A stretch of DNA of 64,000 bases from a bacterium (lineage in GTDB: Bacteria; UBP15; UBA6099). The stretch's first letter is position 1. Each line of letters begins with the position of its first letter. Made by a program: the position numbers and the translations under genes. Shown here piece by piece: positions 19,584 through 55,392 of the stretch. The notes beneath the pieces were generated by a model. That model made no database searches and was not told where the DNA came from. It saw only the letters and a list, made by a program, of their open reading frames with translations. The DNA lies in assembly GCA_035380865.1 (NCBI GenBank), contig DAOSYA010000001.1, positions 61,044 to 125,043 on the forward strand, written 5' to 3'.

Positions 19584-19594
19584 TTGGACGATTC

Positions 19595-31108: not shown

Positions 31109-31181
31109 CAGAACGCCGTACCTTTTCGTTGCTGGCTAATATTGTAATCTAAAGGTGAAAATAAGAGTAGGCTTATGAAAT

Positions 31182-31961: not shown

Positions 31962-32088
31962 TTATACCTCATTGCAGGCAAAGGTTGCATCATGTCGCCG
32001 CCAAAATGATCCGGATTATCCCTTTTATAAACCTACACATTAATCAAGAACCACGATAAAATACATTCACATCTTTAAATTCCTGGGT

Positions 32089-33459
32089 GTGGGCAGGTAC
32101 ATGGCAGGCTTCATAGCACAATTTTTACCGCTGGTTTTATTTTCAATGCTGGTGATCCACTTTGTGTTCAGGGGCGGAAGGCGCACCGTCCGTGGCTTGA
32201 ACGTGAGGAATATCCTGCTCATTGGCTTTGCGATGCTTTTCTACAGGTCGTTTATAATGGCGATGTGGATGGTGAGCGCGAAAGGGTTCGTGCTTTTTCT
32301 GGCGCTTGTGATGCTGTGGTGCGTGTGGCGTAGAAAAACATGGCGCAGCCGGGCGGCGGGGTTTGTTAAGAATTTTATTTTACTGTTCCCGGTATTCATG
32401 ACTTTCATGGTGCTGGTGTTTTCAGTAACGCTCCAGGACAGGTGCGAGCTTGTTTCGAAACAGCCCGGGGTCCGTGCCGTATTCTCTTTCTGTGATGCAA
32501 GCAACGAGGCTGTAGCGGAAAAATATGCAAGCAATGTGTATCATTGCAGGAATGCGTTTCTGAGCGCGGATCGCAAACTGGTCTACACCGGTTTCGGGGC
32601 GGAGACCAACAACAAAGTGCAGGCGCTTCTCGGGGTCGATCCGGCAACGGGAAAAATCGAGAGACATCTGAGCACTTATACCGTTTTTCGCGGTTACTGC
32701 GATAAAGAAAATTCAGTTTGTGTACACCTTGTTTCCCCGAAAGATACAATAAGGATATGGGATGATGAAAAGCAGGTTGCTATAGATCAGTATGTAACGC
32801 CGAAAGACAGGCCGCGGTTCCTCGCGCCCGATCAGGAAAATGGTGATTTGTATGTGGCGTCGGATGCGGACTGGATTGCGCGTGTTGACCTTAAAGAGAA
32901 AAAAGTCGTCGAGAAGATAAAGGTTCCAACGGGCTCGTTGCTGACGATAGACGACACGCGCGAGAAGATCGTCGGGACGATCAACATGGGGTTCAGGAAC
33001 GTTCTGATGGTAGTGGATAAAAAGAGCCGTGAGGTCGAGAATATCCGCGTGGGGTCGTTGAATATGTGGAAGAGCCTCGGGTTCTTTTTTCATGTCGCCG
33101 CAGATCCCGTGCGGGAGCGGGTTTTTGTTGCGGCGCCGTTCGAGTGCGCGGTTTATATGGTTGATCTGAAAACGAAGAAAACCGTCTGGCGGGTCAAGCT
33201 GCCCATAGGTATAAGGGACCTGACTTATGATACGAAAAGGGATGTGCTTTATGCGAGTAATTTTGTGAACGGTTATGTTTACAAAATAAAGGCGGAGGGG
33301 GATTCGCCGCAGAGGGCCGGCAGGATTTTTCTCGGCAAAAGGCTTCGATATTTTAATTATGAGCCGGACATGGATATTTTTCTTGGAGCATCCGCAAACG
33401 GCTTTTTTATGTATGACCCGGAAGTGGAAGATGCTGTGGCGGAGAACAGCGTTAATTGA
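32089..33459 (+). CDS. membrane protein (about 4 TM) with C-terminal beta-propeller-like domain
   Basis: The hydrophobic N-terminal third is followed by repeated strand-rich units (DLYVASDADWIARVDL, RVFVAAPFECAVYMVDL, VLYASNFVNGYVYKI) reminiscent of YncE/YVTN propellers. Start is GTG 32089 or ATG 32101. Confidence 0.55.
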   Translation: MGRYMAGFIAQFLPLVLFSMLVIHFVFRGGRRTVRGLNVRNILLIGFAMLFYRSFIMAMWMVSAKGFVLFLALVMLWCVWRRKTWRSRAAGFVKNFILLFPVFMTFMVLVFSVTLQDRCELVSKQPGVRAVFSFCDASNEAVAEKYASNVYHCRNAFLSADRKLVYTGFGAETNNKVQALLGVDPATGKIERHLSTYTVFRGYCDKENSVCVHLVSPKDTIRIWDDEKQVAIDQYVTPKDRPRFLAPDQENGDLYVASDADWIARVDLKEKKVVEKIKVPTGSLLTIDDTREKIVGTINMGFRNVLMVVDKKSREVENIRVGSLNMWKSLGFFFHVAADPVRERVFVAAPFECAVYMVDLKTKKTVWRVKLPIGIRDLTYDTKRDVLYASNFVNGYVYKIKAEGDSPQRAGRIFLGKRLRYFNYEPDMDIFLGASANGFFMYDPEVEDAVAENSVN

Positions 33460-33472
33460 AGAGAGGTAAGGG

Positions 33473-35896
33473 TTGAATTTTCTCGGGCTGATATTTTTTG
33501 CTGCTGTTGCGATTTTTGTCCTGTCGTTTTTCTTCAAGGCGATGGCGCATCTCTTCAGGCTGTTCGGATGGATCGCTTCGGATGTTTCGAAGGCCGCGGC
33601 AAAGGTTCTGGAATATCAGCCTGCACCCGAAAAGAAAGAGAAGGCGGAACCGGTCGAAAGCGAAACAGTGGCGGCAGAGGAACCGGCCGGGCAAGAAATC
33701 GCGGCGGTTCCCGCAAGAAAAGCGCAGGTGGCGGAAAAAGAGACTGAAGTTGCGTTTCAGGATACAGAGACTGAAAAGGGCTGTAAAAAATCGGTTAGAG
33801 AAGACGCGAAACGGCGAACGCAGGTTGACGTCAAAGAAAACGAAGACACTTCCCTTGTTGATACGCTCGTGTCGGCTGGAGTTGCTGCCGCAAGGATAGG
33901 GGTGAGAGCGGCTGTAGCGCTGGGTGTGTATTTAAGAAGAATCCCCGCGGCTTTGAAAGCTCCTTTCCCGGTGCGGACGACTCTCGTTTGCGCGAAATTG
34001 TTTTTCTGCTATATGCCGATGGTTATATTTTTCAGGGTTCCCGATGTTTACGGGTACGGGCCGATAATCAATGCGGCGAAATGGCTTTTTGTCGTATACT
34101 GCGGGATTATTCTCCTGATATATTTTCTGCGCGTGCTTATCCCGATTGATCTCGAGGGCATATTCCGTTTTGAATCGGACGGTGAAAATGACAGCATGCC
34201 CGGAATAGTCAAGTTCAGAACCGCATTGTATACGATACTGATACTGGCATTTTCAGCGGTGGTCCTGGTAAAGCTCGTCTGGCTCGGGATTCTGATTCTT
34301 GGTTTTTTCTATTCACTTGTTTATTTCTTTGCTTTTGCGAGGCGTGGCCGGAAAGGTTTCACCTTCGGGAAGTTTCTGGTCTCGTGGATCATATTCGGGG
34401 TTTTTGTAACCATCGCGATCGTTGTTTTCTATAAGGGCGGAATGTTCGAGCCGGTCGCCGGAATGATAGTCGCTCCGATAATTCTCATCACTCTCGTATT
34501 TATTCAAATGCTCTGGGTGATGAGCAGGAAATACGAAGTTTCGGAAGGTTTCAATGAGCTTCCGGTTCGTCGCGTGGCATCATGGCTTAATCTGTTTCTG
34601 ATGCCGCTTGCGAAACTTGCTGTTGCAATTCCTCTTTTCTATTTTGTGATCCTTTTCGCTTCCGTCAACAGTGTCGGGTTTTTACTGGGGCTGATGGCGG
34701 TGACGTTGATAGTCGTTATTCCCGCCAGGATCAGAAAAGGGAAAGCGATGCTGGTGGAAGGGCGGTTGTTTCTCTGGTATATGCTTGTTGTGTGGATGTC
34801 GATTTTTTATATCCAGAGCTATAACAGGATTCCGCCCGCGCAGTCGGTTTGCGACGGTGTTTGCGAGAATGAAAACATCGTCGGTGTCTGGTCTATGAAA
34901 GAATACCGGAAGCATGGTTTTCTAAAAGGCGCTCTTCCTTATGACACAGTGTTCGATCCTGAAGCCGGAGCGGTGTTTATCACTTTTAAAAATCTCAGCG
35001 GCTACGGGTCGATTGTGCGGGTCAAGCCCGGGGACGGCAGGGTGGTGGCGAGAGTAACGCCTGAAAACGACCGTTTCCCCGGAAAGGTGTTTTATCCGGA
35101 GCGGCTTTGCATTGACCGTAAAGCGTGCCGGTTGTATTCAACCACGAAAGCAAGCGGAAACTTTCAGCTTCTCGGCCTGAATTACAGCGCAGGCGGTCTT
35201 GAGCTGAGGGATCGGATACGGTTCGCCGAATATGAAACAACCAACTGTGAAGTGTCTGAAAACGGGGATGTGAACATAATATTTCTTGGTCCGCCCGACA
35301 GCCATCTCAGGTTTGTTGATGCGGCATCGAGGCAGCAGACGGGAGAGGTGCATTTCGGCAAGTTCGGTTATGCCGATTATTTCGCGCTCGATGAGAAACG
35401 CGACAGGATAATTGTTCCGTCGCTGGATCCCGCGAACAGGTTCAGGGTTTATGAAGTAAGCAGGGTCGGTTCCGGGTCCCCGATAGTGAGAAAAAGAATG
35501 GTCGCGTTCAGGTTCGACCTGCCCGGCGGGATGACGGTTCATATCCCGGTTCCGACGCTTGGGATTGCACTTAGCAAATCGAACAACATGTTATATTTCA
35601 CATGTCCTTTTCTCAGGATTATATTCGAAGTCGATGCGGATACTTTTGAAATGAAGCGTTGGAAATTCGCAGGGCGATTCCCGCGCGAGATAGCAGTCAT
35701 GGAAGACAGGGGCATGCTGGTTGTGGCGAATTATGGAAGCGGTACGGTGGATTTCATTGACATTAAAAGCCTGGAACTGCGCAAGCGGCTGAGGGTCGGC
35801 AAGCTCGTGAGAAGCATAGAGATTGAGCCGGAAACAGGACGGGTGTTTATTGCCGCGGCCTGCGGCGTTTTTGAGATCATTCTTCCTGATGAATGA
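33473..35896 (+). CDS. large polytopic membrane protein with E/K/A-rich linker and C-terminal beta-propeller-like domain
   Basis: TTG start behind AGGTAAGG. The order is one TM, a charged low-complexity stretch, roughly ten TM helices, then propeller-like repeats (MLVVANYGSGTVDFIDI, RVFIAAACGVFEI). Confidence 0.55.
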   Translation: MNFLGLIFFAAVAIFVLSFFFKAMAHLFRLFGWIASDVSKAAAKVLEYQPAPEKKEKAEPVESETVAAEEPAGQEIAAVPARKAQVAEKETEVAFQDTETEKGCKKSVREDAKRRTQVDVKENEDTSLVDTLVSAGVAAARIGVRAAVALGVYLRRIPAALKAPFPVRTTLVCAKLFFCYMPMVIFFRVPDVYGYGPIINAAKWLFVVYCGIILLIYFLRVLIPIDLEGIFRFESDGENDSMPGIVKFRTALYTILILAFSAVVLVKLVWLGILILGFFYSLVYFFAFARRGRKGFTFGKFLVSWIIFGVFVTIAIVVFYKGGMFEPVAGMIVAPIILITLVFIQMLWVMSRKYEVSEGFNELPVRRVASWLNLFLMPLAKLAVAIPLFYFVILFASVNSVGFLLGLMAVTLIVVIPARIRKGKAMLVEGRLFLWYMLVVWMSIFYIQSYNRIPPAQSVCDGVCENENIVGVWSMKEYRKHGFLKGALPYDTVFDPEAGAVFITFKNLSGYGSIVRVKPGDGRVVARVTPENDRFPGKVFYPERLCIDRKACRLYSTTKASGNFQLLGLNYSAGGLELRDRIRFAEYETTNCEVSENGDVNIIFLGPPDSHLRFVDAASRQQTGEVHFGKFGYADYFALDEKRDRIIVPSLDPANRFRVYEVSRVGSGSPIVRKRMVAFRFDLPGGMTVHIPVPTLGIALSKSNNMLYFTCPFLRIIFEVDADTFEMKRWKFAGRFPREIAVMEDRGMLVVANYGSGTVDFIDIKSLELRKRLRVGKLVRSIEIEPETGRVFIAAACGVFEIILPDE

Positions 35897-35955
35897 AATA
35901 TGGTTTACAATCCATTCAGATTAATTTTGCTGGGAATGAAAACTGGAGATAAAAA

Positions 35956-37395
35956 TTGGGCAGAATAAAGCTCGCTCTGATAATAGCGCCGCTCGATATA
36001 GATGTCGGAATGAAAGAGAGCCTTCCGCATATCGGGATTGCTTATATTGCGGGCAATGTTGATGCTCAAAAAACGGAAGTAAGGATTTTCGACTGCCCCG
36101 CGCTGAGGATGACGGGTGAGCGGCTGATAAGGGAGTTGAAGCAGTACAGGCCCGATGTGGTCGGCCTGACGGCCATGACTCACCAGATCGATGCGACGGC
36201 GAAAACCGCGGAGTCGGTCAAAAGAGTATTGCCGGACAGCAAAATAATAATCGGCGGTTATCACGTAAGCGCTGTGCCGGTCGAGACGATTCAAAGATAT
36301 CCAGTATTCGACATAGGAGTTGCCGGAGAGGGCGAACTGACACTGAGAGAGCTGACTTCTTTGTTTGCCGATGAGGGGCTCGATGCCGACATATCGGGAA
36401 TCCCCGGGGTGTGTTACAGGGTTAACGGCGAGACTGCGTTTACGGGGATACGCCCTTTTATCGAGGATCTGGATTCACTGTCATACCCGGCTTATCACCT
36501 GATGCCGATGGAACGTTATATCGGCTTTTACAGCATGCTCGCCGTGCCGCGGCGAACTGTGGCGATAGTGACGGGGAGAGGCTGCCCGTATAAATGTATT
36601 TTCTGCTACAAAGCGATGGGAGAGAAATACAGGACGAGAAAAGTGGCCTCGGTGATCGAGGAGCTTAAATGGGATATTTCCGAATATCAGATAAAAGATT
36701 TTGTGATTACTGATGAATCATTCCTGCTCAAGAAACAACGGATATATGAATTCTGCGAAACGATTATAAAAGAGAATATCAACAAGAAGGTTAACTGGAT
36801 ATGCCAGTCGCGGGTTGACCATGCCGACCCCGAGTTGCTGAAGTTGATGAAGACGGCGGGTTGCCGGGTGATTTCGTTCGGAGTCGAAACCGGGAATCAG
36901 CAGATGATGAAAGATATCGGGAAAGCTATTACAAAAGAGCAGGCGATAAACGCTGTGAGATGGGCGCGCGAGGCGGGCATATTCACTGATACCAATTATA
37001 TAATCGGGCATCCGGGCGAAACCCGGGAGACAATCAAAGAGACAATTGATTTTTCATTGAAATTGAATCCGGATGCCGCATCATTCTCGCTTCTTGTGCC
37101 TTTCCCCGGAACGGTCGTGGCCGATATGGCGGCCCGCGGCGAGGGAGGCCTCAAGCAGCTTTCCCATGATTACAGGCTTTTCGGCAAACAGGTCGGCGGC
37201 TCGATGGAGCTTGAAGACATACCGAGAGTCGAGCTTGAGAAATACCAGAGAACCGCATATATGAAGTTCTTTCTCAGGCCGGGTAAAATATTCAATCTGC
37301 TGCGTATCGTGAGCCTGAAGCTGATGTTCAAGATGGCGTGGCACAGTATCGTTTCGCGCGGAAAACCGGGCCGCGGCGATCATGAAACTCAATAG
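35956..37395 (+). CDS. B12-binding-domain radical SAM protein (class B)
   Basis: IIIGGYHVSAV, the core GRGCPYKCIFC, GVETGNQQMM and GHPGET. TTG start behind GGAGA. Confidence 0.85.
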   Translation: MGRIKLALIIAPLDIDVGMKESLPHIGIAYIAGNVDAQKTEVRIFDCPALRMTGERLIRELKQYRPDVVGLTAMTHQIDATAKTAESVKRVLPDSKIIIGGYHVSAVPVETIQRYPVFDIGVAGEGELTLRELTSLFADEGLDADISGIPGVCYRVNGETAFTGIRPFIEDLDSLSYPAYHLMPMERYIGFYSMLAVPRRTVAIVTGRGCPYKCIFCYKAMGEKYRTRKVASVIEELKWDISEYQIKDFVITDESFLLKKQRIYEFCETIIKENINKKVNWICQSRVDHADPELLKLMKTAGCRVISFGVETGNQQMMKDIGKAITKEQAINAVRWAREAGIFTDTNYIIGHPGETRETIKETIDFSLKLNPDAASFSLLVPFPGTVVADMAARGEGGLKQLSHDYRLFGKQVGGSMELEDIPRVELEKYQRTAYMKFFLRPGKIFNLLRIVSLKLMFKMAWHSIVSRGKPGRGDHETQ

Positions 37396-39632
37396 ATAAA
37401 GATTCCGCCGAAAATCGTTTCTGTTTGAAATCCCAGACCGGCGTATTGTTGCCTCATATCAGATATGTACTTTTCTCGCGAGCTTTGAATCTCTATGTTC
37501 GCAAGGAGTTTATATTCATCCGACAGCCATGTCGAGGCCCCGGGGACGGGCATGAAAAATATTCTGCCGGGCGCCGGCTGCGCGTTGTCTGCCGGGATTG
37601 CCCGCACGTTTTCGAAGACGCTTTTTAAATCGCCGACTACCCTGTCGGAATTATTTGCTTCTTCAAAAACTTCGATGGACACTTTCTGTTTTTCAGGCAA
37701 TGTTTCTATGAACTTCTCGGCTGAGATTATCGAAATCTGAGGGTCGGCGTTTTTCAGCGGATCGAGCAGGGACGAAAAGCTGTACATGACCATAATAACA
37801 ATTCCGATAATAATGACAGCCATCGGCATCCCGCGAGCAAGTTTTCCGGTTCTCTGGTATGCGGCCACGAAAATAAAAGCCATCATGAGATAAAGAATTA
37901 TTCCGGCAATATAGCTGTGGCAGAGCTTTACAATTATCTTGTAAATCGGTGGAGACATTTCGAAATCGAAACGGTTAGACAGGAAATACCCGACCAGGTT
38001 TATGGGGTCGATAAAATATGAATCGTGGTTCGCGATGTAGTTGTCGAGAGCGTCGTAGTCGATTTTATAAAATGAAATTTTCTTGCCTCTCGCGATGGGT
38101 TTCGCGAACGGTAGCTCGGGGAACAGGTCAACCGGCCAGACCTGGTTCAGGATAAGATATTTTGCATTGTATTTTTTTATGACTTTTGCCGTCGTGTTTA
38201 TTGTTCCGTAGGGCAGGGGTGCTGTCGGCCTGTCGCATACGAGCTGGGTTGAAAAGAAGGGATATGACATCACGACAGTTCCGGGCTGTGTTTGTTTGCG
38301 GATGTAGTCGCAGGTTGTTCGCAATTCGATCATATCTTCATCTTCGGGTGACTGTAGCAGCCGGAGTGAGTTCATGACGATGAAACCGGAAGTGTCCGAC
38401 AGGATGATGAAAACGGCGATTCCGACCGCAAGCCCGCGTCGTGTTAAAAAAGGAGCATGTTTTTTCGCCCATTCCTCACACTCGACCATGCCCTTGCCCG
38501 CAACAAGAAAAGCTATCGGCAGGATACAAAGCAGATACCTGTCGGAATAAATCGCCATGATTATGTGCATCATTACCTGGAGCACGAGAATGGTGAGAAT
38601 AAGCGCGATCTCGGGGCTGCCCCTGGCGCCGCGCGCGCCGAGCACAAGGAACGGCAACACAAGGAACCCGATGGTTTGAAAAACGCCCGGCATATAAAAT
38701 ATCGATGTCTGCTTTCCCAGAATCGCCAGTTTTACGTTTATCCAGATAACCCGCATGAAGTTGTTGAAGCGTTCTCTTTTCGTGATAACAGGCATTTCCC
38801 ACTCGTTGTAACCTTCATAATTGAAAATCACGCCGAACAGGTCGTATTCGTCGAACCTGTCGATCATGAGGCCGCCGTAGACACGGGATATCCCCTCGAA
38901 CTGCTCTGTGTATGTGGGTTTCCCGAAAACTATCCAGCTTCTGATAAGGAAAGGCAGCACAACGATGCCTGCAACGCCGAAAACTTTTATTATCGGCACT
39001 CCGAAAAATTTCTTTCTCCGGAAAAAAAACATCCATATAAGTGTCGCCGGTATCAGCACAAAGCTGTTTCTTTTGAACAGGAACGCGAGCGCCATGAGCA
39101 GCCCCGCTGTCGCGTAACGCTCGCTGAACAGTGCGGAGACGAAAAGAATATAGAAAATCATCTGCCATGCTTCAGGAAGTCCCGGGTCCATGAGGGTGTA
39201 CAGTCTCAGCAGGCCCGGCGAAAAAAGAGCCAGTAATGCGGCAATAAAAGCAGCCTTTGAGCCGAACAGTTTTTTCCCCGCCCTGAAAACCACCAGCGGC
39301 AGGAGAAAGATGGCGATGAACGTGGGTACGAGAAATGTCCACTGGCTTTCCCTGAAAACGGCGTAGAAAGGAACCAGCGCCACCGAGTAGAGGTTGGCTC
39401 TCTGCGCTGCTGGATGCGGCAGTTTCTGGTCTATGATAGTGTATGAGCGAAGAAGGTTCTCTTTAAAACCTTCCATTCTGTAAAGGCTTCTCGCCATCCC
39501 GGCATACTCGAACGAGTCGCCGTCGTGTGTGGGTGCTCTCGAATGCAGGAAGATGTGGAACAGGCAGAATACAAGAGAGATTACTATCAATATTTTCCAG
39601 AGGGGATCTTTTATTTTCACTCGTTCATCCAT
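37389..39632 (-). CDS. GT-C-fold membrane glycosyltransferase (ArnT/PMT, GT39-like), atypically extended
   Basis: About a dozen N-terminal TM helices with an early loop HDGDSFEYAGMARSL. A soluble domain, two further TM helices and a C-terminal soluble domain follow. The family call comes from architecture only. Confidence 0.55.
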   Translation of the reverse strand: MDERVKIKDPLWKILIVISLVFCLFHIFLHSRAPTHDGDSFEYAGMARSLYRMEGFKENLLRSYTIIDQKLPHPAAQRANLYSVALVPFYAVFRESQWTFLVPTFIAIFLLPLVVFRAGKKLFGSKAAFIAALLALFSPGLLRLYTLMDPGLPEAWQMIFYILFVSALFSERYATAGLLMALAFLFKRNSFVLIPATLIWMFFFRRKKFFGVPIIKVFGVAGIVVLPFLIRSWIVFGKPTYTEQFEGISRVYGGLMIDRFDEYDLFGVIFNYEGYNEWEMPVITKRERFNNFMRVIWINVKLAILGKQTSIFYMPGVFQTIGFLVLPFLVLGARGARGSPEIALILTILVLQVMMHIIMAIYSDRYLLCILPIAFLVAGKGMVECEEWAKKHAPFLTRRGLAVGIAVFIILSDTSGFIVMNSLRLLQSPEDEDMIELRTTCDYIRKQTQPGTVVMSYPFFSTQLVCDRPTAPLPYGTINTTAKVIKKYNAKYLILNQVWPVDLFPELPFAKPIARGKKISFYKIDYDALDNYIANHDSYFIDPINLVGYFLSNRFDFEMSPPIYKIIVKLCHSYIAGIILYLMMAFIFVAAYQRTGKLARGMPMAVIIIGIVIMVMYSFSSLLDPLKNADPQISIISAEKFIETLPEKQKVSIEVFEEANNSDRVVGDLKSVFENVRAIPADNAQPAPGRIFFMPVPGASTWLSDEYKLLANIEIQSSREKYISDMRQQYAGLGFQTETIFGGIFIY

Positions 39633-39775
39633 CAGGATAGCTCTTTTCCACTTATGACATTATAATTTAACAGGTGTCGCATGTGCAATTAGCATTATCT
39701 GTAATAGAAAAAAATATTTTACAGGTACTATAATGTTGGAAAGTTGCTCCTCATGGTGAAGCGGGCTGTCATTTT

Positions 39776-41245
39776 ATGAAGATACTTTTAGTTAATCCGC
39801 CGTTTTCGAGATTGCTCGGCAGGTTTGAAAACACAGAGGTGATAACGCCTATAGGATTGCCGGGAGTCGCCGCATATATTAATAAGCACGGATATGGTGT
39901 TTCGGTATACGATGCGAACAGGCTGCCCGGAAGCAGAACCAGGCTTGGCAAAAAAGCAACGGAGATGGTGGACGGAAACCATAACTATCTCGAGACGCTG
40001 AATTCGGAGCGGCATCCGGTATGGGGAGAGATAAGAGAACGGCTGATTGCGGAAAAACCCGACGTAGTCGGTATATCGGTGCTGAGTTCGGCAAGGGGGT
40101 CTGCTTTCCAGGTTGCGCGTATCTGCAAGGAGGTTGATCCGCGGATACGGGTTGTGTTCGGGGGGTATCACCCGACCGGTTTCCCGGAGGATGTGCTGTC
40201 GAACGAAAATGTTGACGTTGTGGTCAGGGGCGAGGGGGAGCAGACTTTCCTTGAATTGCTGGAGGTGTACAAAAACGAAGGGGACATCGGATCGGTCCTG
40301 GGCATATCTTATTCGGACAACGGGAACGTTATTAATAATCCCGACAGGGCCTTTATTGACGATATGGATTCGCTTCCCTTCACTGCGGATTTTGTGTTCC
40401 AGGGCTTGATAGGGAGAATTCCGATTCAGTATGGCAGGGGATGCCCCTACGGGTGCAAATTCTGCGCTGACAGGGTGGTCTGGAAACGGAAGATTCGATA
40501 CCGATCGGCGGAGAATGTTGTTGAAGAGATAGAGTCGGCTGTCAGAAACCTTGGAGTGAGAGAGTTTACTTTTATCGACGGCACATTTAACGTCAGCCGC
40601 CGGAAGGTGATGGATTTCTGCGAACTTGTTATCGAAAAGAAGCTGGACATAATCTGGGACGCTCTTGTGAGGGCGGATAAACTGGACGATGAAATGCTTG
40701 CGAAGTGCAGGCGCGCGGGATGTGTCCAGATGAATCTCGGTGTTGAGTCAGGTAGCGAACGGGTTATCGATGATCTGAATAAAGCGATTGATCTTTCTAC
40801 GGTGAAGGATGATATCGACAGGATAAAAAAACATGGAATTTCGGTGGTAACGTTTTTCTGTATAGGAATGCCGCCGGAGACAGCTGAAGATTTGAGAAAA
40901 ACAAGGGATCTCATAAGCCGGCTGAATCATGATTTTGTCATATTGAGCGTGTTTACGCCGCTGCCGGGTACCGATTATTATTTGGAACTGCTTGAGAAGA
41001 ATATTATCGGGAAAGGACACGATTTCGATTTGTACGGATTCAAGTCCCCGAGGAATCATTTCGCGTTGAATATTGCAGACGAAGAATTCGAGTACTGGCG
41101 CAATGAAATACTTAAAGCTACGGATGAAGTGAATAAAAAAGGGCGCTTCGCTGTCAAAATGCTGCTAAAGAACTCCGGGTTTTTTATCAGGAATCCCAGG
41201 CAACTTATCAGGAGAGCGAAGCAATTTGCGGGAATGCAGAAGTAA
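39776..41245 (+). CDS. B12-binding-domain radical SAM protein (class B)
   Basis: MKILLVNPPFS, VVFGGYHPTGF, the core GRGCPYGCKFC, GVESGSERVI and GMPPET. Confidence 0.85.
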   Translation: MKILLVNPPFSRLLGRFENTEVITPIGLPGVAAYINKHGYGVSVYDANRLPGSRTRLGKKATEMVDGNHNYLETLNSERHPVWGEIRERLIAEKPDVVGISVLSSARGSAFQVARICKEVDPRIRVVFGGYHPTGFPEDVLSNENVDVVVRGEGEQTFLELLEVYKNEGDIGSVLGISYSDNGNVINNPDRAFIDDMDSLPFTADFVFQGLIGRIPIQYGRGCPYGCKFCADRVVWKRKIRYRSAENVVEEIESAVRNLGVREFTFIDGTFNVSRRKVMDFCELVIEKKLDIIWDALVRADKLDDEMLAKCRRAGCVQMNLGVESGSERVIDDLNKAIDLSTVKDDIDRIKKHGISVVTFFCIGMPPETAEDLRKTRDLISRLNHDFVILSVFTPLPGTDYYLELLEKNIIGKGHDFDLYGFKSPRNHFALNIADEEFEYWRNEILKATDEVNKKGRFAVKMLLKNSGFFIRNPRQLIRRAKQFAGMQK

Positions 41246-41262
41246 GGAAACCGGTAATTAAA

Positions 41263-42567
41263 ATGCATAAGGAAATTGAGATATCAAAAACGGTCAGTCT
41301 CTGCCCGGAATGCGACAGGATAATCGATGCTGAAATCATAGAGCGCAACGGTCGGGTTTTTATCAGAAAAACCTGCCCGGAACACGGCGATTTCGAGCTT
41401 TTGCTTTTTGATGACGCCTCTTTCTACAGGCGGTTGCTGAAAACGACTTCAAAGGTTCCCGAAGAGTTCGATAATTGCGATGTTACCGGATGTTTGTCCT
41501 GCAGGCGGCATATGCCGAGGGTCAAGACTCTTATGATAGACGTTACGGAGCGATGCAATCTGAACTGTACGGCGTGTTTCACGAACACGCATGCGAGGAA
41601 GAGCAGAGACCCCGGAATAGAGGAGATCAGGGAGCGGCTTTCGAAATGGGTTGATAACAAGCCTACTGTTCTGTTGTGCGGGGGTGAGCCGACGGTTCGC
41701 GAAGATCTTGAAGATGTGATCAGGACTATCGATTCGATGGGATTTGTCGTGAAGATGGCGTCGAACGGGATCAGGCTCGCGGAAGCCGATTATGTGAAAA
41801 GGCTCAAAGACGCCGGGCTGGGCTGGGTTCTTTTCCAGCTCGATGGTTTTTCAGACGATATATATATGAAGACGCGCGGAAGGAAGCTTGTGGATATAAA
41901 GAGACAGGCTTTGATCAATCTCGCAGATGCCGGGATAAAAGTCTGCCTTGCTTTTATGGTGGTTCGAGGGGTTAACGATTTCGAGATCGGGCGGGTGGTG
42001 GATTTTGTTATGAACAGTGACAATATCATGCACCTCGGTTGCACGGTGTTGTCGGATGTAGGCCGCGACGGCTTTGCGCCGGAGAATATTACCTCGGCGA
42101 TCCATGTTATGCAGTCGATCGAAAAGGAAACCGAAGGCAGGGTCAGGGTCGAGGATTTCATGCAGACGAGGCTGATTGGCGACAGGCTGTTCAGGCTGAC
42201 CGGCAACCTTGAATTTCAGCAGAAAACATGTTTTCACATGGCGCTTCTTCACAAGAGAAAAGATGGATACATACCGGTGAACAGGTATGCGAGACCGGGA
42301 ACGGCCTTGAGAAACATCGGTGGGTTTGCCGAACTCGGACTGCTTTACGGGTCTTTGAAGCACTGGGATGCGATACAGCTCTCAGGCAGGGTCAAGCTCC
42401 TTACCATAGAGGATTTCCGGCCTCATGACACAATCGATCTGGTGGATGCCAACAGGTGCAATAAGGCATATATGACCGAGGAAGGCTATATTCCTCCCTG
42501 TATATATAACACTAAATACAGGCCTCATTGCTGGCGGGCGAACGATGTGGATGGTGCGCGCGAATGA
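41263..42567 (+). CDS. multi-cluster radical SAM protein with N-terminal Cys knuckle (COG1964-like; family of archaeal tetraether synthase Tes/GDGT-MAS)
   Basis: SLCPECDRIIDAEIIERNGRVFIRKTCPEHG, CDVTGCLSC, the core ERCNLNCTAC and LLCGGEPTVRED. There are further C-terminal Cys (KTCFHM, ANRCNKAY, PPCIY, PHCW). The family assignment is from memory of the motif layout. Confidence 0.7.
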   Translation: MHKEIEISKTVSLCPECDRIIDAEIIERNGRVFIRKTCPEHGDFELLLFDDASFYRRLLKTTSKVPEEFDNCDVTGCLSCRRHMPRVKTLMIDVTERCNLNCTACFTNTHARKSRDPGIEEIRERLSKWVDNKPTVLLCGGEPTVREDLEDVIRTIDSMGFVVKMASNGIRLAEADYVKRLKDAGLGWVLFQLDGFSDDIYMKTRGRKLVDIKRQALINLADAGIKVCLAFMVVRGVNDFEIGRVVDFVMNSDNIMHLGCTVLSDVGRDGFAPENITSAIHVMQSIEKETEGRVRVEDFMQTRLIGDRLFRLTGNLEFQQKTCFHMALLHKRKDGYIPVNRYARPGTALRNIGGFAELGLLYGSLKHWDAIQLSGRVKLLTIEDFRPHDTIDLVDANRCNKAYMTEEGYIPPCIYNTKYRPHCWRANDVDGARE

Positions 42568-44066
42568 AAGTGGTTTTTGTTTATCCCGCGTTCGAAAGCC
42601 TGGCGATAGAGTATCTGGCGGCGGTTGCGCGGGAAAAAAACCATGAAGTCCGCATGGTGTTCGACCCCCGGCTTTTTGCTGATTCATTTGTGCAGATTCC
42701 ATCGCTTGCGCGTTTTTTTTCGATGCGCGACAGGGTGATCGAGGAGGTTGTCGGGCATCAGCCGGACCTCATCGCTTTTTCTGTTGTTACAAATGATTTT
42801 CCATGGTTTAAAGAGATCGGTGCTGAGATTCGAAGGCATACGTCTGCGCCGATCATTGCCGGGAATATTCACGTCACCTCGGTTCCCGAGCAGGTGCTGC
42901 GGCTCGGTTTCGTAGATGCTGTTATCCGGGGAGAGGGAGAAGGCGCTTTCGCGGATATCCTCGATTCGATAGAGGAGACAGGGGAAATAAATCCCGGAAT
43001 AGAGAATGTCGCGACCCTGGACGATGATGGAAACGCAAGGATAAATCCGTTGCGACGGCTTATACAGGATCTTGACACGCTTCCGTTCCCGGACAAGACG
43101 ATATACGACGGCACTTCAATTAAAGCCCGCGATATATACACGATCATGACAACACGGGGTTGCCCGTATACGTGCAGTTTCTGCAATAACAACCTGTTGA
43201 AAAGACTGTATGGAATAAAGGGATATCTCAGGTCGCGAAGCGTCGATAATTCTATTGCCGAGCTGAAGCAGGCGGTTGAAAACTTCGGTCCCGGGCATGT
43301 GAATTTTTACGACGAGGTGTTCGGGACAAATAAAAGGTGGCTTCGCGAGTTCGTTGATAAGTATAAAAAGGAAATCGGGCTTCCCTATATCGCCTGCACG
43401 AACCCGAATATTGTTGACGAAGAATATGCGGATCTGCTCGCGGAATCCGGTTGCGGGAAACTCGATATGGGAGTACAGACGATCAACCCGGAAAAGAGAA
43501 GACATATATATCACAGGCGTGAAACCAACGAGCAGATCAGGTATGCCATCGATACGCTCAAGTCGCGCGGAATAAAAGTCGCGGCTGAAAATATAACGAA
43601 CTTCCCGACGGAGACCGAAGAGAACCTGCTCGAAATGGCGAGATTCTACAACGAAACAAGGCCGAGCGCGCTGAAGGTATTCTGGCTCAGGTATTATCCG
43701 GGGACGGAGATAGTTGATATTGCCGTGGAAAAGGGAGTGCTGACCCGCGAGGATGTCGAACGGGTGAATCAGGGCGAGGATCTCGGCTCGGTTACGATAG
43801 GCGTCGGGACACCCGTGTTACAGAGGAAGTTCTATCCGATGTTCGCGCTTACCCAGGTTCTTCCAGGGGGAATGGTTGAGCTGATGCTCGACCGGAAATT
43901 ATACAGATATTTTCCCGCCTCGATCATGCCGAAGATATCATACACTCTGTACAGGCTGCTGACCCGCAGGTCGCCGGAGGAGGAAATAATGATGTATCAG
44001 CATGCAAGGCGGTATGTATTTTATCTGAAAAAATGGGCGTCGGGGATAAAGAAAAGGAATAAATAG
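42564..44066 (+). CDS. B12-binding-domain radical SAM protein (class B)
   Basis: The start (MKVVFVYPAF) overlaps the upstream stop as ATGA. Motifs are IIAGNIHVTSV, the core TRGCPYTCSFC and GVQTINPEKR. Confidence 0.85.
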   Translation: MKVVFVYPAFESLAIEYLAAVAREKNHEVRMVFDPRLFADSFVQIPSLARFFSMRDRVIEEVVGHQPDLIAFSVVTNDFPWFKEIGAEIRRHTSAPIIAGNIHVTSVPEQVLRLGFVDAVIRGEGEGAFADILDSIEETGEINPGIENVATLDDDGNARINPLRRLIQDLDTLPFPDKTIYDGTSIKARDIYTIMTTRGCPYTCSFCNNNLLKRLYGIKGYLRSRSVDNSIAELKQAVENFGPGHVNFYDEVFGTNKRWLREFVDKYKKEIGLPYIACTNPNIVDEEYADLLAESGCGKLDMGVQTINPEKRRHIYHRRETNEQIRYAIDTLKSRGIKVAAENITNFPTETEENLLEMARFYNETRPSALKVFWLRYYPGTEIVDIAVEKGVLTREDVERVNQGEDLGSVTIGVGTPVLQRKFYPMFALTQVLPGGMVELMLDRKLYRYFPASIMPKISYTLYRLLTRRSPEEEIMMYQHARRYVFYLKKWASGIKKRNK

Positions 44067-44090
44067 GAATCTTTTTTATTCGGGAAAAAC

Positions 44091-44120
44091 AAAGGCCTCC
44101 TGTTTTCAGGAGGCCTTTTT
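44091..44120. terminator. bidirectional rho-independent terminator between the rSAM operon and hppA
   Basis: aaaggcctcctg (44091-44102) pairs with caggaggccttt (44107-44118). An A-run lies upstream and a T-run downstream. Confidence 0.75.
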
Positions 44121-46778: not shown

Positions 46779-48065
46779 TCAGTCGTCGGAGTCGGGAACA
46801 TCGACGCGCTTGATCTGTGCGCCGAGTCCTGCGAGCTTGCTTTCAAAGTTTTCATAACCACGGTCTATATGGAAAATATCATAAACTTTCGTGTGATTGT
46901 CCGCCGCGATTCCCGAAAGGACAAGCGCGGCTCCGGCTCTCAGATCGGTTGATATCACTCTAGAACCGGACAGCTTGTTTGTGCCTACTATAATGCAGGT
47001 GTTGCCCTGCACGTTTATTTTCGCGCCCATTCTCGCGAGCTCGGCCACGTGCATGAAGCGGTTTTCCCACACAGTTTCCTTGATGATGCTGACGCCGTCC
47101 GCTGTTGTGAGCATGGCCATCATCTGCGGCTGCATATCCGTCGGGAAGCCCGGGTGGGGCAGAGTTGTTATATTTAAAGGAAGAATTTTCTTTTTTGCGG
47201 ACACCTTGATTGCGTTCCGGAATTCTTTGATGCTGATCCCGGCTTCTTCCAGCTTTACGATGACAGGCCGCAGATCTTTTATTTGAATATTCTCGACAGT
47301 GACGTTTCCTCTTGTAATAGCGGCGGCGAGCATGAACGTTCCGGCCTCTATCTGGTCCGGAATCATTGAATGGGTCGTGCCGTGAAGTTTGGAAACCCCG
47401 TTGATGGTTATAGTTTTTGTCCCCGCGCCCTGGATTCTCGCTCCTATGGATTTGAGGAACCATGCGAGATCCTGGATGTGAGGTTCTTCGGCTGCGTTTT
47501 CTATTATCGTGGTTCCCTCGGCAAGCACACCCGCCATCATCAGGTTCGAAGTTGCGCCGACCGATGGGAAATCGAGGTGAAGCCGAGCTCCTTCAAGCTT
47601 ATTGCAGGTTGCATCCATATAGCCGTGATCGTTCTTTATCGACACGCCCATTTTTTCAAAGCCGGCGAGATGGTAGTTGACGGGTCTCGAACCGATCGCG
47701 CAGCCGCCCGGCACCGCGGCTCTCGCCCTACCGAATCGGGCAAGCAGGGGGCCCATCACATAAATGGATGCCCGCATCCTGTTCATAACTTCGAACCGGG
47801 TTTCGAAATTGGATACGTCTCTCGAATTTATGACCATTGTTCCGTTTTCGTATGTTACCTTCGCGCCGAGTTCGTCCAGAACAACCATCATTGTCTGGAT
47901 ATCCCGCAGATTCGGAACATTATTGAGGACAACTTCATCAGGAGTCAGAAGCGAAGCGGCTATGATCGGCAGCGACGCATTTTTGCTGCCGCTGATTTTG
48001 ACCGAGCCTTTCAGCTTTGTGTCTCCGGTAATTTCGTAATAACTGTTGCCGTTTTTATTAGTCAT
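46779..48065 (-). CDS. murA: UDP-N-acetylglucosamine 1-carboxyvinyltransferase
   Basis: VKISGSKNASLPIIAASLL, PGGCAIGSRPV (active-site Cys) and PHPGFPTDMQ. Confidence 0.95.
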   Translation of the reverse strand: MTNKNGNSYYEITGDTKLKGSVKISGSKNASLPIIAASLLTPDEVVLNNVPNLRDIQTMMVVLDELGAKVTYENGTMVINSRDVSNFETRFEVMNRMRASIYVMGPLLARFGRARAAVPGGCAIGSRPVNYHLAGFEKMGVSIKNDHGYMDATCNKLEGARLHLDFPSVGATSNLMMAGVLAEGTTIIENAAEEPHIQDLAWFLKSIGARIQGAGTKTITINGVSKLHGTTHSMIPDQIEAGTFMLAAAITRGNVTVENIQIKDLRPVIVKLEEAGISIKEFRNAIKVSAKKKILPLNITTLPHPGFPTDMQPQMMAMLTTADGVSIIKETVWENRFMHVAELARMGAKINVQGNTCIIVGTNKLSGSRVISTDLRAGAALVLSGIAADNHTKVYDIFHIDRGYENFESKLAGLGAQIKRVDVPDSDD

Positions 48066-48176
48066 TCTCTAAATTTCTCGTGGTGAAAAGGCAAAACTCG
48101 CCAGTTCTGTGTCAGGGACAACCAATTTTATCAAAGCGTAATTGAAATTGCAACCGACAAACTTCTAAACGTTTTT

Positions 48177-49538
48177 TCACATACCTGCCAGCAGCCTTTC
48201 AAAATCTATATGAGGTATGTGGAATACCGCCGCGCCGTATGCCGTTGAATTAATCAGCCTCGTGTTTCCTTTGATTTCTTTTATATAAAATGATTCAAGG
48301 TCCCGCTTATAAAGATACAGAACATCGCTTGTTTTGACCGTATTGCCATATATGTCCTGAACTTCCCGCAGTTTTCCGAATCTGCCCGAATATCCCTGGG
48401 TGCGGCTTTCTGAAGCGTGTGTCTGTGTGTCTGTGAAGGCAAAGTCGGCGCCTATAAGAATAATCGGATCGGCGCCTGCCCTGAATGCAAAATCCACTGC
48501 GGGCATCAGCACTGTGCCGGAGAAGAAAAGCATTCCTTTATTGAAAGGGTCCTCTTCCGATCCAACTTTCGAGACTGCGGCATATCTGTTTTCCGGCTTG
48601 AATCTTTTTACCGAATCCGGGTTTGAAGTCTGGAAAAAAATCAGGCTTTCATCTTTTATATCAAGTTCCCGGAAAAGCAGGTCGGTTTTTTCCTGCGGGT
48701 CGCCCGTGATAACGAACGAGGGTCTGATTCCCGCTTTGTGGAAGGGAGCAAGCGCCGAGTCTACAGCGACTATCGCCGGGAGTCCGGGCTTTCTTTTCAT
48801 AATTTCAAGACTTGTGTCGAGCGACGGGCCGGCCGCTGCAACTATCATCGGCATGCTTTCATATTTCCCGAACAATTCGTTGACGCCCGGAGAACCCTCG
48901 AAGATTTCCCTGTTTCTGATACTGTTGTTTTCTCTCTGTTCCCTGAATACTTCTCTTTCATTCGATGATCCCCTGATGTATTCGAGCATGGCTCTCAACT
49001 CTTCGCTGTCATCCGGGAAGGCGTCCAGAGAGGGTTTGTGTATCAGCACGTCTATATCTTCTATTCGATTAATCGCCGGGAATCCCGAAATGAACTTGTT
49101 CAGCGATTCGTTTATCGAATCGTATGGGCCGGCAAATATGTGGAACCTGTTGTCGGCGAGCAATTGCGTCAGATCCCTGGAAGCCAGGGCAAGCTTGAAC
49201 ACATCCGCGTTCACTTCGACGGCGAACACTTTATTTATCTCCGGCCTCATCTCCAGCAGCGCTTCGATGTGGTATCCGAAGCCGAAGCCGAAGACCATCA
49301 CAATTCCGAGACTGCTTTTTAATTTCTGGGTTTCGGCCCATCTTTTCGCGTCGGTGACAGGATCGAATTTGCTGTGCAGGAAAATTTCCCTGTCACCGAG
49401 GTTCACAACCACGGAAGGGCAGTTATCAATTCTCGTGTCCACGGATTTTGCCCTGTCGAGAGGAATGTTCTCAGGGATAATAACAGGCTGAGGGCGTATT
49501 TTTAAAAGGTTTAGGTTCCGCGCAATAAATTGTTCCAT
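48177..49538 (-). CDS. DUF115 / motility-accessory-factor (Maf)-like putative glycosyltransferase
   Basis: The central IVAAAGPSLD...AIVAVDSALAPFHKAGIRPSFVITGDPQ matches the MptE/Maf (DUF115) core as I recall it. Confidence 0.65.
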   Translation of the reverse strand: MEQFIARNLNLLKIRPQPVIIPENIPLDRAKSVDTRIDNCPSVVVNLGDREIFLHSKFDPVTDAKRWAETQKLKSSLGIVMVFGFGFGYHIEALLEMRPEINKVFAVEVNADVFKLALASRDLTQLLADNRFHIFAGPYDSINESLNKFISGFPAINRIEDIDVLIHKPSLDAFPDDSEELRAMLEYIRGSSNEREVFREQRENNSIRNREIFEGSPGVNELFGKYESMPMIVAAAGPSLDTSLEIMKRKPGLPAIVAVDSALAPFHKAGIRPSFVITGDPQEKTDLLFRELDIKDESLIFFQTSNPDSVKRFKPENRYAAVSKVGSEEDPFNKGMLFFSGTVLMPAVDFAFRAGADPIILIGADFAFTDTQTHASESRTQGYSGRFGKLREVQDIYGNTVKTSDVLYLYKRDLESFYIKEIKGNTRLINSTAYGAAVFHIPHIDFERLLAGM

Positions 49539-49598
49539 TGTTAATTTATTATATCAGGAAATCCATCGTCGGCAATGTCGCGGCAGGCCGGGAGGAGA

Positions 49599-50333
49599 TT
49601 ATTTGTCTTCAGTGTTTTCTTCTTTCATTCTTCTCTTTATGTGATAAATATCTCTTATTATCTGTTGTGCAACCGGTGTGTCATAGGGAATAAGATCGTA
49701 GAGTTTTTTAAGTACCGTGTGTTGTTTCTCCGGTTCCAGGTGTTCCCGGATAATATCTCTGAACCACTCGTAAACCAGTGGCTGCCCGGGATCCATCGAG
49801 AGCGATTTAAAGATGAGATCGATTGCTTCGGTGTGTTCCCCCATCTCATTTTTCGCAAGCCCCTTGTGCAGCCATCCACCGGGGTTAAGCTCATCTATTT
49901 CTATCGCTTCTTCACTTAGTTCAATGACTTTCTCAAAATCTTCCAGTCTGAGATAAATGGTGGCTTCCGCAATTACCTTTTCATCCTGCAACGATTTCTC
50001 TGTCATATTCTGCAGAGGCTCAAGCGCTTTTTTATAGTCCTTTTCCCTGTAATAAATCTCGGAGAGCTTGTACCAGGCCATGTCGTAATGCTCGTCTTTG
50101 TCCAGCACGTACATGAATTTCTCTTCCGCTTCTTCCAGTTCGTTTGCCATAATCAGCATATCGCCGAGAAGATAGTAGAGTTCGAGATCATCGGGGTAAT
50201 CCTTAATCAACGCCCTGTATGTGTCCAGCGCTTCCACGGCTGAATCATAGGTCTGGTCGAAAGGATGTGCCGACGCAACGGCGCTGATAATTAACAACGA
50301 CAATACTGCTATTGTGAAATTTCTAAATTTCAT
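49599..50333 (-). CDS. secreted TPR-repeat protein
   Basis: Signal peptide MKFRNFTIAVLSLLIISAVASA, then several 34-aa TPR-like units (for example AWYKLSEIYYREKDYKKALEPLQ). Confidence 0.7.
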   Translation of the reverse strand: MKFRNFTIAVLSLLIISAVASAHPFDQTYDSAVEALDTYRALIKDYPDDLELYYLLGDMLIMANELEEAEEKFMYVLDKDEHYDMAWYKLSEIYYREKDYKKALEPLQNMTEKSLQDEKVIAEATIYLRLEDFEKVIELSEEAIEIDELNPGGWLHKGLAKNEMGEHTEAIDLIFKSLSMDPGQPLVYEWFRDIIREHLEPEKQHTVLKKLYDLIPYDTPVAQQIIRDIYHIKRRMKEENTEDK

Positions 50334-50394
50334 AAATCATCCCTCAAGGGAATTGTTAATCAATTAAACGGAAGAGTAAACACTTTCACTAATA

Positions 50395-53571: not shown

Positions 53572-53617
53572 GATTGTCTCCCTTTTCTATTGTATCATGA
53601 TGTCATATTTTACGAAT

Positions 53618-55300: not shown

Positions 55301-55392
55301 AAACAGATATTAATTGATTTGCAAGGAATCGTCATCTTTATATTAAGTATTAATGATAATCCGGTTTCGATCGTATCGATGTTATGGCGGTT

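Follow-up and report, generated by a model that had tools for sequence, protein, structure and literature searches.

A Tes/GDGT-MAS-like radical-SAM protein and its conserved cobalamin-domain partners in a UBP15 bacterium: a possible system for tailoring envelope lipids or glycolipids

In a 64,000-nucleotide stretch of bacterial DNA, referred to below as the window (GTDB lineage Bacteria; UBP15; UBA6099; GenBank assembly GCA_035380865.1, contig DAOSYA010000001.1, forward-strand positions 61,044 to 125,043), we analyzed a three-gene operon for radical S-adenosylmethionine (rSAM) enzymes and the locus that encloses it. A previous reading of the same DNA, made from the letters alone (the sequence-only reading), had proposed that the middle gene encodes a relative of Tes/GDGT-MAS, the tetraether synthase of archaea, that cobalamin (B12)-binding, class-B rSAM enzymes flank it on both sides, and that the three genes make membrane-spanning, cyclised or methylated lipids. 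The coordinates and spacing of the open reading frames (ORFs) in the window indicate that the genes, here called A, B and C, form one operon. A gap of 17 nt separates A from B, and the stop codon of B overlaps the start codon of C in the ATGA at 42564-42567, both as the sequence-only reading had described them; C is predicted to be translationally coupled to B through this overlap. The operon is embedded in a 14.4-kb locus (29696-44118) with four B12-rSAM genes, two glycosyltransferase genes (GT2 and GT-C) and two genes for membrane/beta-propeller proteins, some of them confined to an extended form of the locus. The features are as follows.

39776-41245, plus strand: gene A, first gene of the operon, an accessory B12-rSAM paralogue of 489 aa; extended form only (Pfam, BLAST).
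41263-42567, plus strand: gene B, a Tes/GDGT-MAS-like rSAM protein of 434 aa (Pfam PF23545 and PF04055, PDB match, AlphaFold2 model).
42564-44066, plus strand: gene C, a 'C-type' B12-rSAM protein of 500 aa from its ATG, the first conserved partner of B (Pfam, BLAST).
29696-31108, minus strand: R1, an 'R1-type' B12-rSAM protein of 470 aa, the second conserved partner of the Tes-like gene (Pfam, BLAST).
31182-31961, minus strand: a small soluble GT2 of 259 aa, polyprenyl-phosphate-sugar synthase type, upstream of R1 (Pfam Glycos_transf_2).
32089-33459, plus strand: a membrane protein of 456 aa with four N-terminal transmembrane helices and a C-terminal beta-propeller-like domain (weak YncE and PQQ-repeat propeller matches); extended form only (hydropathy scan).
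33473-35896, plus strand: a polytopic membrane protein of 807 aa with about 9 transmembrane helices and a C-terminal beta-propeller-like domain (weak propeller match); extended form only (hydropathy scan).
35956-37395, plus strand: R2, a B12-rSAM paralogue of 479 aa; extended form only (Pfam).
37389-39632, minus strand: a PMT_2, ArnT-like GT-C of 747 aa, divergent from the A-B-C operon, with 11 hydropathy peaks at the transmembrane threshold, some of them overlapping (Pfam PMT_2, hydropathy scan).
39705-39734, plus strand: candidate sigma-70-like promoter of A-B-C, TAGAAA-18-TATAAT, 10/12 consensus matches (consensus scan, a pattern match only).
44091-44118, both directions: predicted bidirectional intrinsic terminator with a perfect 12-bp stem, AAAGGCCTCCTG-AAAA-CAGGAGGCCTTT, between gene C and a convergent membrane pyrophosphatase gene (terminator scan).

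Gene B carries the Pfam domains Zn_ribbon_HMPTM (PF23545) and Radical_SAM (PF04055), and each of the motifs picked out by the sequence-only reading (the knuckle, Cx4Cx2C, RCNLNCTAC and the C-terminal cysteines) is present in its product. The rubredoxin-like site, C14-PE-C17...C38-PE-H41, has the exact CX2CX20CX2H spacing of GDGT-MAS. The N-terminal site, C72-DVTG-C77-LS-C80-RR-H83, has one residue inserted relative to Tes, where the ligands are C73/C77/C80 plus His, the rSAM motif is canonical (RC98-NLN-C102-TA-C105, CX3CX2C), and the C-terminal cysteines are at positions 323, 399 and 413. Across 83 family members, C38, H41, H83, C98, C102, C105, C323, C399 and C413 were invariant, and C14 and C17 were kept in at least 90%. 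The N-terminal cluster site was kept in the 16 core-clade members and lost in the sister proteins P0017 and P0018. From these residues, all four metal sites of GDGT-MAS, the rubredoxin-like site, the N-terminal [4Fe-4S], the rSAM cluster and the C-terminal [4Fe-4S], are predicted to be kept in B. In addition, Tyr403 of B aligns with GDGT-MAS Tyr459, which is strictly conserved in 1000 archaeal Tes homologues; it is invariant in the B clade, whereas TrsS-type proteins have Val or Ile at this position. The residue aligned to Met439 is Glu383, invariant in the clade, in a low-score alignment that we checked by hand. In GDGT-MAS, a labile Met439 and three Cys ligate the C-terminal [4Fe-4S], and the M439A variant is active.

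The best PDB relative of B was 7TOL (E=4e-55), over residues 8-302 plus the C-terminal motif. An AlphaFold2 model built from the 83 family sequences had a mean predicted local distance difference test score (pLDDT) of 93.2 and a predicted template modelling score (pTM) of 0.92, and Foldseek matched it over its full length to 7TOM (E=1.7e-36, TM-score 0.77 over 493 aligned columns) and to 7TOL (E~1e-36, TM-score 0.75). The next fold after GDGT-MAS was MoaA, at a TM-score of 0.43. On this model, B is placed as a genuine member of the Tes/GDGT-MAS fold family.

Membership of the fold family did not extend to orthology. B scored 209.3 bits against the NCBIfam model for Tes (NF045702, cut-off 450), with only residues 9-303 aligned, and 219.4 bits against that for TrsS (NF045646, cut-off 490). 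Its C-terminal motif is of the Tyr type, not the CCIHV... of TrsS-type proteins, and it stands apart from the named TrsS proteins P0024 and P0079. In a neighbor-joining tree of 118 family members with 100 bootstraps, B fell on a long branch shared by 15 proteins close to it (55-66% identity) and by two sister proteins (37%). This clade was monophyletic in 100% of bootstraps and fell outside the Tes-type group (81%), which comprises proteins of 480-620 aa, a named Tes among them, and outside the TrsS-type group (430-470 aa). Mean identity of the B clade was 31% to Tes-type and 30% to TrsS-type proteins, as compared to 36% between those two groups. Because its scores are below the cut-offs and its clade is separate, we regard B as a member of the fold family, not as a Tes orthologue, and by sequence it founds a third subfamily. 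The Tes-like character claimed by the sequence-only reading thus held for fold, metal sites and the tyrosine, and not for descent from within the Tes-type group. A close homologue of B was found in one GTDB species representative only, and the literature that we searched gave no account of the B subfamily or of its fixed pairing with two B12-rSAM enzymes; for TrsS it gave a selenoprotein family entry with no function. The wider Tes family also includes fusions of a methyltransferase to a Tes-like protein (P0059 and P0100).

The products of A, C, R1 and R2 each matched the B12-binding domain PF02310 (64-80 bits, cut-off 32) and the Radical_SAM domain PF04055 (83-94 bits), and by this domain content they are assigned to the class-B rSAM enzymes. 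The presence of such enzymes on both sides of B, as the sequence-only reading had it, was confirmed for A and C. No curated NCBIfam family cut-off was reached by any of the four, including those for HpnJ, HpnR, BchE and the ladderane-type model. Against HpnJ (cut-off 577.6), A scored 155, C 88, R2 208 and R1 155 bits, and against HpnR (cut-off 650) the scores were 87, 61, 119 and 93 bits in the same order. BchE (TIGR02026, cut-off 481) gave 88-210 bits, with 210 for R2 and 205 for R1, of which it was the best NCBIfam match; the ladderane-type TIGR04072 (cut-off 360) gave 79-130 bits. The RiPP (a peptide made by the ribosome and modified after translation) rSAM model ApyD (cut-off 750) gave 192 bits for A, 178 for R1 and 109 for C. 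HpnP was not among the 25 best NCBIfam matches listed for the four proteins, the presence of an HpnP model in the library being unchecked. The PDB matches to AprD4, 9CCB, TokK, CysS and OxsB were rejected as guides to the chemistry of these enzymes, being too weak. The wider C-type family has 2475 representatives at E<1e-30 across uncultured bacterial phyla, and the relatives of gene C bear generic or automatic labels only, with no functional names.

We compared nine loci that carry members of the B clade or of its sister group, assigning partners by all-against-all BLAST. At least one B12-rSAM gene, and usually two, stood beside the Tes-like gene in all nine, as compared to 4 of 79 other Tes-family loci (1.35 Mb) in which a full-length B12-rSAM gene lay within the flanks. 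With nine of nine clade and sister loci against 4 of 79 others, the arrangement is more than chance, and the pairing is specific to the B clade; co-occurrence across genomes, which the sequence-only reading had put forward as a check of its proposal, was borne out. The C-type partner was 58-67% identical across loci and lay directly downstream of the Tes-like gene wherever it was present, usually with a 4-nt overlap: gene C orthologues take this position in L002, L083, L086 and L001, the B-C overlap being 4 nt in L083 and L086. No C-type gene was found in L084 or L088. Identity of the R1-type partner was 60-67% in L002, L083 and L086; it fell to 44% in the sister locus L084 and to 39% in L001. 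The Tes-like, C-type and R1-type genes form a single operon in L086, L087, L093 and L001, and in L093 the trio is by itself, no related gene being found within 10 kb of it. In the window, R1 lies 10 kb upstream of B on the opposite strand, paired with the GT2 gene. L002 and L083 share this divergent layout, with R1 and GT2 on one strand and the Tes-like gene and C on the other, and GT2 orthologues adjoin R1 in both (58% identity in L002, 43% in L083). No GT2 was found within 10 kb in L093.

Compared with L002, the window carries an insertion of six genes between GT2 and the Tes-like gene, among them the two membrane/beta-propeller genes, R2, GT-C and A. The P0005 contig has the same extended layout, with a beta-propeller gene, a 952-aa gene, a GT-C and a gene at the position of A. 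Gene A is 30-33% identical to R1 and R2, and R2 is 33% identical to R1. Gene A has no orthologue in the minimal loci L002, L083, L086 and L093 and is an accessory paralogue. The conserved partners of B are the C-type and R1-type enzymes, and the core of the module consists of these three soluble proteins. The triad of the sequence-only reading stood as a Tes-like enzyme with two class-B rSAM enzymes, even as a stand-alone operon, with R1 in the place that had been given to gene A. We counted about 16 B-clade clusters and about 18 C-orthologue clusters, close to the number of PheT relatives (about 20, 44-65% identity). Purely by inference, this closeness suggests that nearly all members of the lineage carry the module and have inherited it vertically. 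After these PheT relatives, the next matches, at 35-38% identity, were to Bacillota, with some to Chloroflexota. We rejected the MurA/pyrophosphatase neighborhood as a meaningful association: it is found in L002 and the P0005 contig and not in L083, L086 or L093, and reflects lineage synteny only.

Other arrangements were observed in more distant loci. In the sister loci L084 and L085, two Tes-like paralogues of 425 aa each, without the N-terminal CX4CX2C cysteines, flank a class-I SAM methyltransferase, and two B12-rSAM genes and two genes for polytopic membrane proteins lie divergently upstream. L004 (109-19315, from an uncultured Ca. Binatia metagenome-assembled genome), which is one of the four other Tes-family loci with a B12-rSAM gene, is a very large rSAM cluster. 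It contains a Tes-like gene 32% identical to B, a gene for a protein of 1295 aa in which four rSAM stretches and a SPASM-like match were found, two B12-rSAM genes for proteins of about 600 aa and three further rSAM genes.

The recurring neighbors of the module are polyprenyl-phosphate-type GT2, GT-C and polytopic membrane proteins. The propellers of the membrane proteins added in the extended form are of periplasmic type. In the window, where the GT2 and GT-C genes are 5.4 kb apart, the best NCBIfam and PDB matches of the GT2 were ArnC, DPMS, GtrB (sll0501), PgfS and PpgS, all below the cut-offs (top score 70.6 bits, against 529), and the hydropathy scan predicted no transmembrane helix in it. 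In agreement with the sequence-only reading, no glycerolipid, ether-lipid or isoprenoid gene was found among the window ORFs scanned. The genes that recur nearby are the GT2, the GT-C and glycan-export genes, not lipid-core genes. No conserved ORF of at least 15 aa was found in ten intergenic regions beside the core genes (the window and six related loci).

Homologues of the B12-rSAM partners are also found in other phyla without a Tes-like gene. Paralogues of C, at 36-53% identity, lie there in Wzm/Wzt clusters or in clusters rich in glycosyltransferases, often with translational coupling to a GT2; in L090, a GT2 gene is followed by a C-type gene with a 4-nt overlap. L092 (531-13566, Ca. Abyssobacteria SURF_5) has two such GT2-then-B12-rSAM pairs in a glycosyltransferase-rich cluster, which holds C-type and R-type homologues, a homologue of the small GT2 of the window, a further rSAM gene, a TMEM260_N/TPR GT-C, six other glycosyltransferase genes and a sugar nucleotidyltransferase gene. 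From its gene content, L092 looks like an undescribed radical-SAM glycan-modification system. L089 and L091, from another lineage, share a conserved cassette of a membrane protein, C-type and R-type B12-rSAM enzymes, one or two polytopic membrane proteins of 625-639 aa and a protein of about 155 aa, which adjoins a Wzt_C-type ABC ATPase and a membrane protein with four transmembrane helices.

Elsewhere in the window, envelope-glycan genes were found at 17122-20308 (a Bac_transf initiating transferase and a second small GT2, 19580-20308) and at 46779-56343 (MurA, a Maf/MptE-like protein at 48177-49538, a GH38 alpha-mannosidase of 1058 aa at 50395-53571 and a sugar nucleotidyltransferase at 55393-56343). 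Since an LptC-like protein is encoded in the window, the host cell is probably diderm. The gene for a DegV/FakB-type fatty-acid-binding protein at 28816-29685 (plus strand), convergent with R1 across an 11-nt gap, was considered as a link to lipids and set aside, as its adjacency is not conserved in L002 and is probably coincidental. A second rSAM pair lies 12 kb downstream of the operon: a 306-aa, HxsC4/MoaA-like rSAM protein (56480-57400, plus strand) and a 1055-aa protein (57454-60621, plus strand) in which a class-I SAM methyltransferase is fused to a B12-rSAM-like region and to a second rSAM domain. rSAM genes weakly similar to this pair adjoin the Tes-like gene in L088 and L004, and by sequence the pair may belong to the same pathway as B. 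The gene at 20949-21815 (plus strand) joins an N-terminal B-box-type zinc finger to an RDD membrane domain, an unusual bacterial pairing, and an RDD gene occupies the syntenic position in L002. The reading frame at 60722-64000 (plus strand), which runs off the end of the window, has a hydrophobic N-terminal stretch, judged by eye, and a subtilisin-like DDNGHGTHVAG near 61810; its product is probably a secreted serine protease. The only RNA genes that Rfam found in the window were adjacent genes for tRNA-Val(GAC) and tRNA-Cys(GCA) at 14343-14495 (minus strand), with no rRNA and no riboswitch.

With Tes/GDGT-MAS (MJ0619, 7TOL/7TOM), B shares the four-domain fold, the rubredoxin-like, N-terminal and rSAM sites, the equivalent of Tyr459 and the cluster cysteines of the C-terminal motif ...C..xY......IPxCxYN, and like it is predicted to be soluble, with no convincing transmembrane helix. 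It differs in overall sequence (about 31% identity), in its CX4CX2C N-terminal cluster as compared to CX3CX2C, in the change of Met439 to Glu and in a shorter second-pocket region. The host of B is bacterial, B has an obligatory pair of B12-rSAM partners, and there is no GGR, ferredoxin or archaeal lipid-gene context. The Tes homologues of Acidobacteria, Planctomycetota and Chloroflexota belong to the same superfamily, and some cluster with lipid-type rSAM genes; in the acidobacterial loci L035 and L071, a B12-rSAM gene lies about 8 kb from the Tes homologue. In contrast to the B clade, these homologues fall in the Tes-type or TrsS-type groups, and where a B12-rSAM gene is within 10 kb, as in the four of 79 loci, it is not translationally coupled. 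The sequence-only reading had also named the membrane-spanning lipid synthase of Thermotoga, Mss, as a relative. Mss of Thermotoga and Thermoanaerobacter is likewise an rSAM enzyme that couples two lipid tails anaerobically, and AlphaFold superposition suggests that the catalytic architectures of Mss and Tes are similar (PMC13274423). However, Thermotoga lacks Tes homologues and Mss is only 'remotely related' to Tes (PMC13159169). Mss is outside the Tes/PF23545 family, so a joint phylogeny of Mss and B would not be meaningful.

For the B12-rSAM enzymes, the likeness to Grs, Gmm, Cgm/Pgm and Ted is one of description only: these are class-B rSAM enzymes, mutually homologous and with different reactions, that act after Tes-type coupling, whereas the enzymes of the window come from a large family of uncultured phyla, some members of which are in glycan clusters. 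In archaea, B12-rSAM enzymes modify Tes products and cluster with one another and with gms (PMC11214058, bioRxiv 10.1101/2025.10.20.683597). The GT2-R1 pair at 29696-31961 resembles HpnI/HpnJ and Cds in its logic of a GT2 followed by an rSAM enzyme on a lipid-bound sugar, and HpnJ ranks with the better NCBIfam matches of R2 and R1. It differs from HpnI/HpnJ in that its scores are far under the HpnJ cut-off, no hopanoid genes (shc, hpnH, hpnG, hpnK) accompany it, and the GT2 is not specifically HpnI-like. The small GT2 and the PMT_2-family GT-C of the window recall the two-step glycosylation systems ArnC/ArnT, GtrB/GtrC and Ppm1/Pmt, although the GT2 lacks the C-terminal transmembrane helices of ArnC and GtrB. 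We know of no described GT2 and GT-C two-step system that interleaves four B12-rSAM enzymes and a Tes-like enzyme.

The interpretation that we prefer, tentatively and with somewhat less than even confidence, is that the locus encodes a lineage-specific rSAM system for tailoring a membrane-anchored lipid or glycolipid that the cell already contains. All members of the Tes family characterized so far act on lipid tails (PMC9433317, PMC8941075, PMC13459092), and the Tes-like fold with its full set of cofactors points to hydrocarbon-chain chemistry. The GT2, GT-C and Wzt neighbors of the B12-rSAM pair point to lipid-linked sugars. We prefer the tailoring of a lipid or glycolipid because it fits both kinds of evidence. 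By analogy with Tes, B would hold a hydrocarbon chain in a hydrophobic tunnel, abstract a hydrogen from one of its unactivated carbons and park the radical on the C-terminal [4Fe-4S], after which a C-C bond would form, in chain-chain coupling or macrocyclization. The two B12 enzymes would then methylate, cyclize, desaturate or ring-contract the B-modified molecule. They may act either on the chain, for which Grs, Gmm, Cgm, Pgm and Ted acting on Tes products are the precedent, or on a sugar head group in the manner of HpnI/HpnJ or Cds, for which HpnJ and Cds are. The absence of substrate-synthesis genes within 10 kb of the L093 trio fits the tailoring of a bulk cell component, as by tes, grs and gmm. 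In the window, the probable role of the GT2 is to attach a sugar to a lipid phosphate. Because the core is expanded there by GT2, GT-C, the two membrane/beta-propeller proteins and two further B12-rSAM paralogues, the final product in the window may be an envelope glycolipid or lipid-linked glycan whose processing takes place at each face of the inner membrane.

Several findings weigh against this interpretation. The Tes model scored B far below its cut-off and aligned only part of it, and B belongs to its own clade and third subfamily; moreover, the large TrsS-type branch of the family is without known function, so membership of the family does not fix the substrate. The helical region that in GDGT-MAS makes up the second lipid pocket is also about 60-90 residues shorter in B, and Glu stands at the position of the labile Met439. 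No glycerolipid, ether-lipid (Ger/PlsA/Elb), fatty-acid or isoprenoid genes were found in any of the nine loci. Among solved structures, the sugar diol-dehydratase AprD4 comes nearest to A, R1 and C in sequence, and the glycan-cluster context of the C paralogues that lack a Tes-like gene points to sugar chemistry.

These last points belong to an alternative that we consider doubtful, yet a serious possibility, in which no membrane-spanning lipid is made. The B12-rSAM enzymes would C-methylate, deoxygenate or ring-contract sugars of a polyprenyl-phosphate-linked glycan, with the GT2 as its synthase and the GT-C as its transferase, and the radical chemistry of B, a C-C cross-link for example, would fall on the sugar or glycan part and not on a hydrocarbon tail. 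A pairing of GT2 with a B12-rSAM gene does recur, in the window, L002 and L083 (GT2 then R1), in L090 and twice in L092, whose glycosyltransferase cluster brings together C-type and R-type enzymes, the GT2 homologue and a TMEM260-type GT-C. Further, L089 and L091 have a Wzt-type ABC exporter and polytopic membrane proteins beside their B12-rSAM pairs, no solved structure is closer to three of the enzymes than AprD4, and the window is rich in glycan genes. However, these glycan contexts concern paralogues of 36-53% identity, none of them with a Tes-like gene. The trio of L093 has no glycosyltransferase within 10 kb, and in L086 and L087 none was found upstream before the contigs end just past R1. 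Hydrocarbon chains are, in addition, the only ligands known for the Tes-like fold, and from the GDGT-MAS structure it was argued that a substrate both bulky and hydrophilic is unlikely (PMC9433317).

The lipid product named by the sequence-only reading, a branched glycerol dialkyl glycerol tetraether (brGDGT) or diabolic acid, is a narrower version of our preferred interpretation and distinctly unlikely: B would couple glycerolipid tails, and the B12-rSAM enzymes would add mid-chain methyls or cyclopentane rings. It shares the fold, cofactor and partnership data of the broader interpretation. A role in brGDGT synthesis has been proposed for bacterial Tes homologues (PMC8941075), Acidobacteria and Planctomycetes have tes-gms clusters (PMC11214058), bacterial phosphatidic acid is a ligand of GDGT-MAS, and the enzymes of brGDGT methylation and cyclization are still to be identified. 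Against this, no bacterial Tes homologue has a demonstrated activity (PMC11868695), and the B clade, at about 31% identity to archaeal Tes, is further from it than the homologues of Koribacter and Solibacter, for which 40-42% has been reported. The module has no linked genes for ether formation or glycerolipids, and its second lipid pocket, being shortened, may lack room for two glycerolipids. A tetraether or diabolic-acid product is thus possible but not evidenced. Least probable of all, and very unlikely in our view, is the maturation of a ribosomal peptide (of the ApyD or polytheonamide type) or of a small-molecule or organometallic cofactor by the trio, a cofactor role having once been suggested for MJ0619 and being possible for TrsS. 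ApyD is among the best NCBIfam matches of A, R1 and C, TrsS scores marginally above Tes on B (219 against 209 bits), and multi-rSAM clusters such as L004 resemble natural-product clusters. However, the ApyD and TrsS scores are far under their cut-offs (750 and 490), B has the Tes-type Tyr and not the TrsS-type Val, and the earlier annotation of MJ0619 as a pterin methylase has been overturned. No conserved protease, transporter or leader-recognition (RRE) gene was found. As no conserved small ORF was found in the ten intergenic regions beside the core genes, a RiPP was rejected as the main explanation.

The tailoring of a membrane-anchored lipid or glycolipid remains the interpretation that we favor, and it has a bolder form, which we hold to be unlikely though somewhat less so than a brGDGT product: that a third branch of the tetraether-synthase family and two cobalamin rSAM enzymes make new chain-coupled, methylated or cyclized envelope lipids or glycolipids, membrane-spanning or macrocyclic, in an uncultured, probably diderm lineage of phylum rank.

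Whatever its product, the module is real and conserved, a variant of the pattern in which a Tes-family enzyme is joined by B12-rSAM tailoring enzymes, and it is a compact, co-inherited cassette of a Tes-like enzyme and two B12 radical-SAM enzymes. The analysis also corrects two annotations, in that the conserved partner of B is not the adjacent upstream gene and Mss lies outside the Tes family tree. Branched tetraether lipids are widely used palaeoclimate proxies. To our knowledge, bacterial Tes homologues are the main unproven candidates for their synthesis, and the enzymes that methylate and cyclize them are not known. If the product is a lipid, the cassette would be the first case in bacteria of the logic known from archaeal Tes, Grs and Gmm. 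If it proves to be one of the new lipids suggested above, coupling and tail modification would for the first time have a genetically defined cassette in a bacterium, and with it a template for finding the enzymes of brGDGT methylation and cyclization. If it is instead a glycan or another molecule, the GDGT-MAS fold would have been recruited for non-lipid chemistry, which would call for caution in reading each metagenomic bacterial 'Tes homologue' as a tetraether marker.

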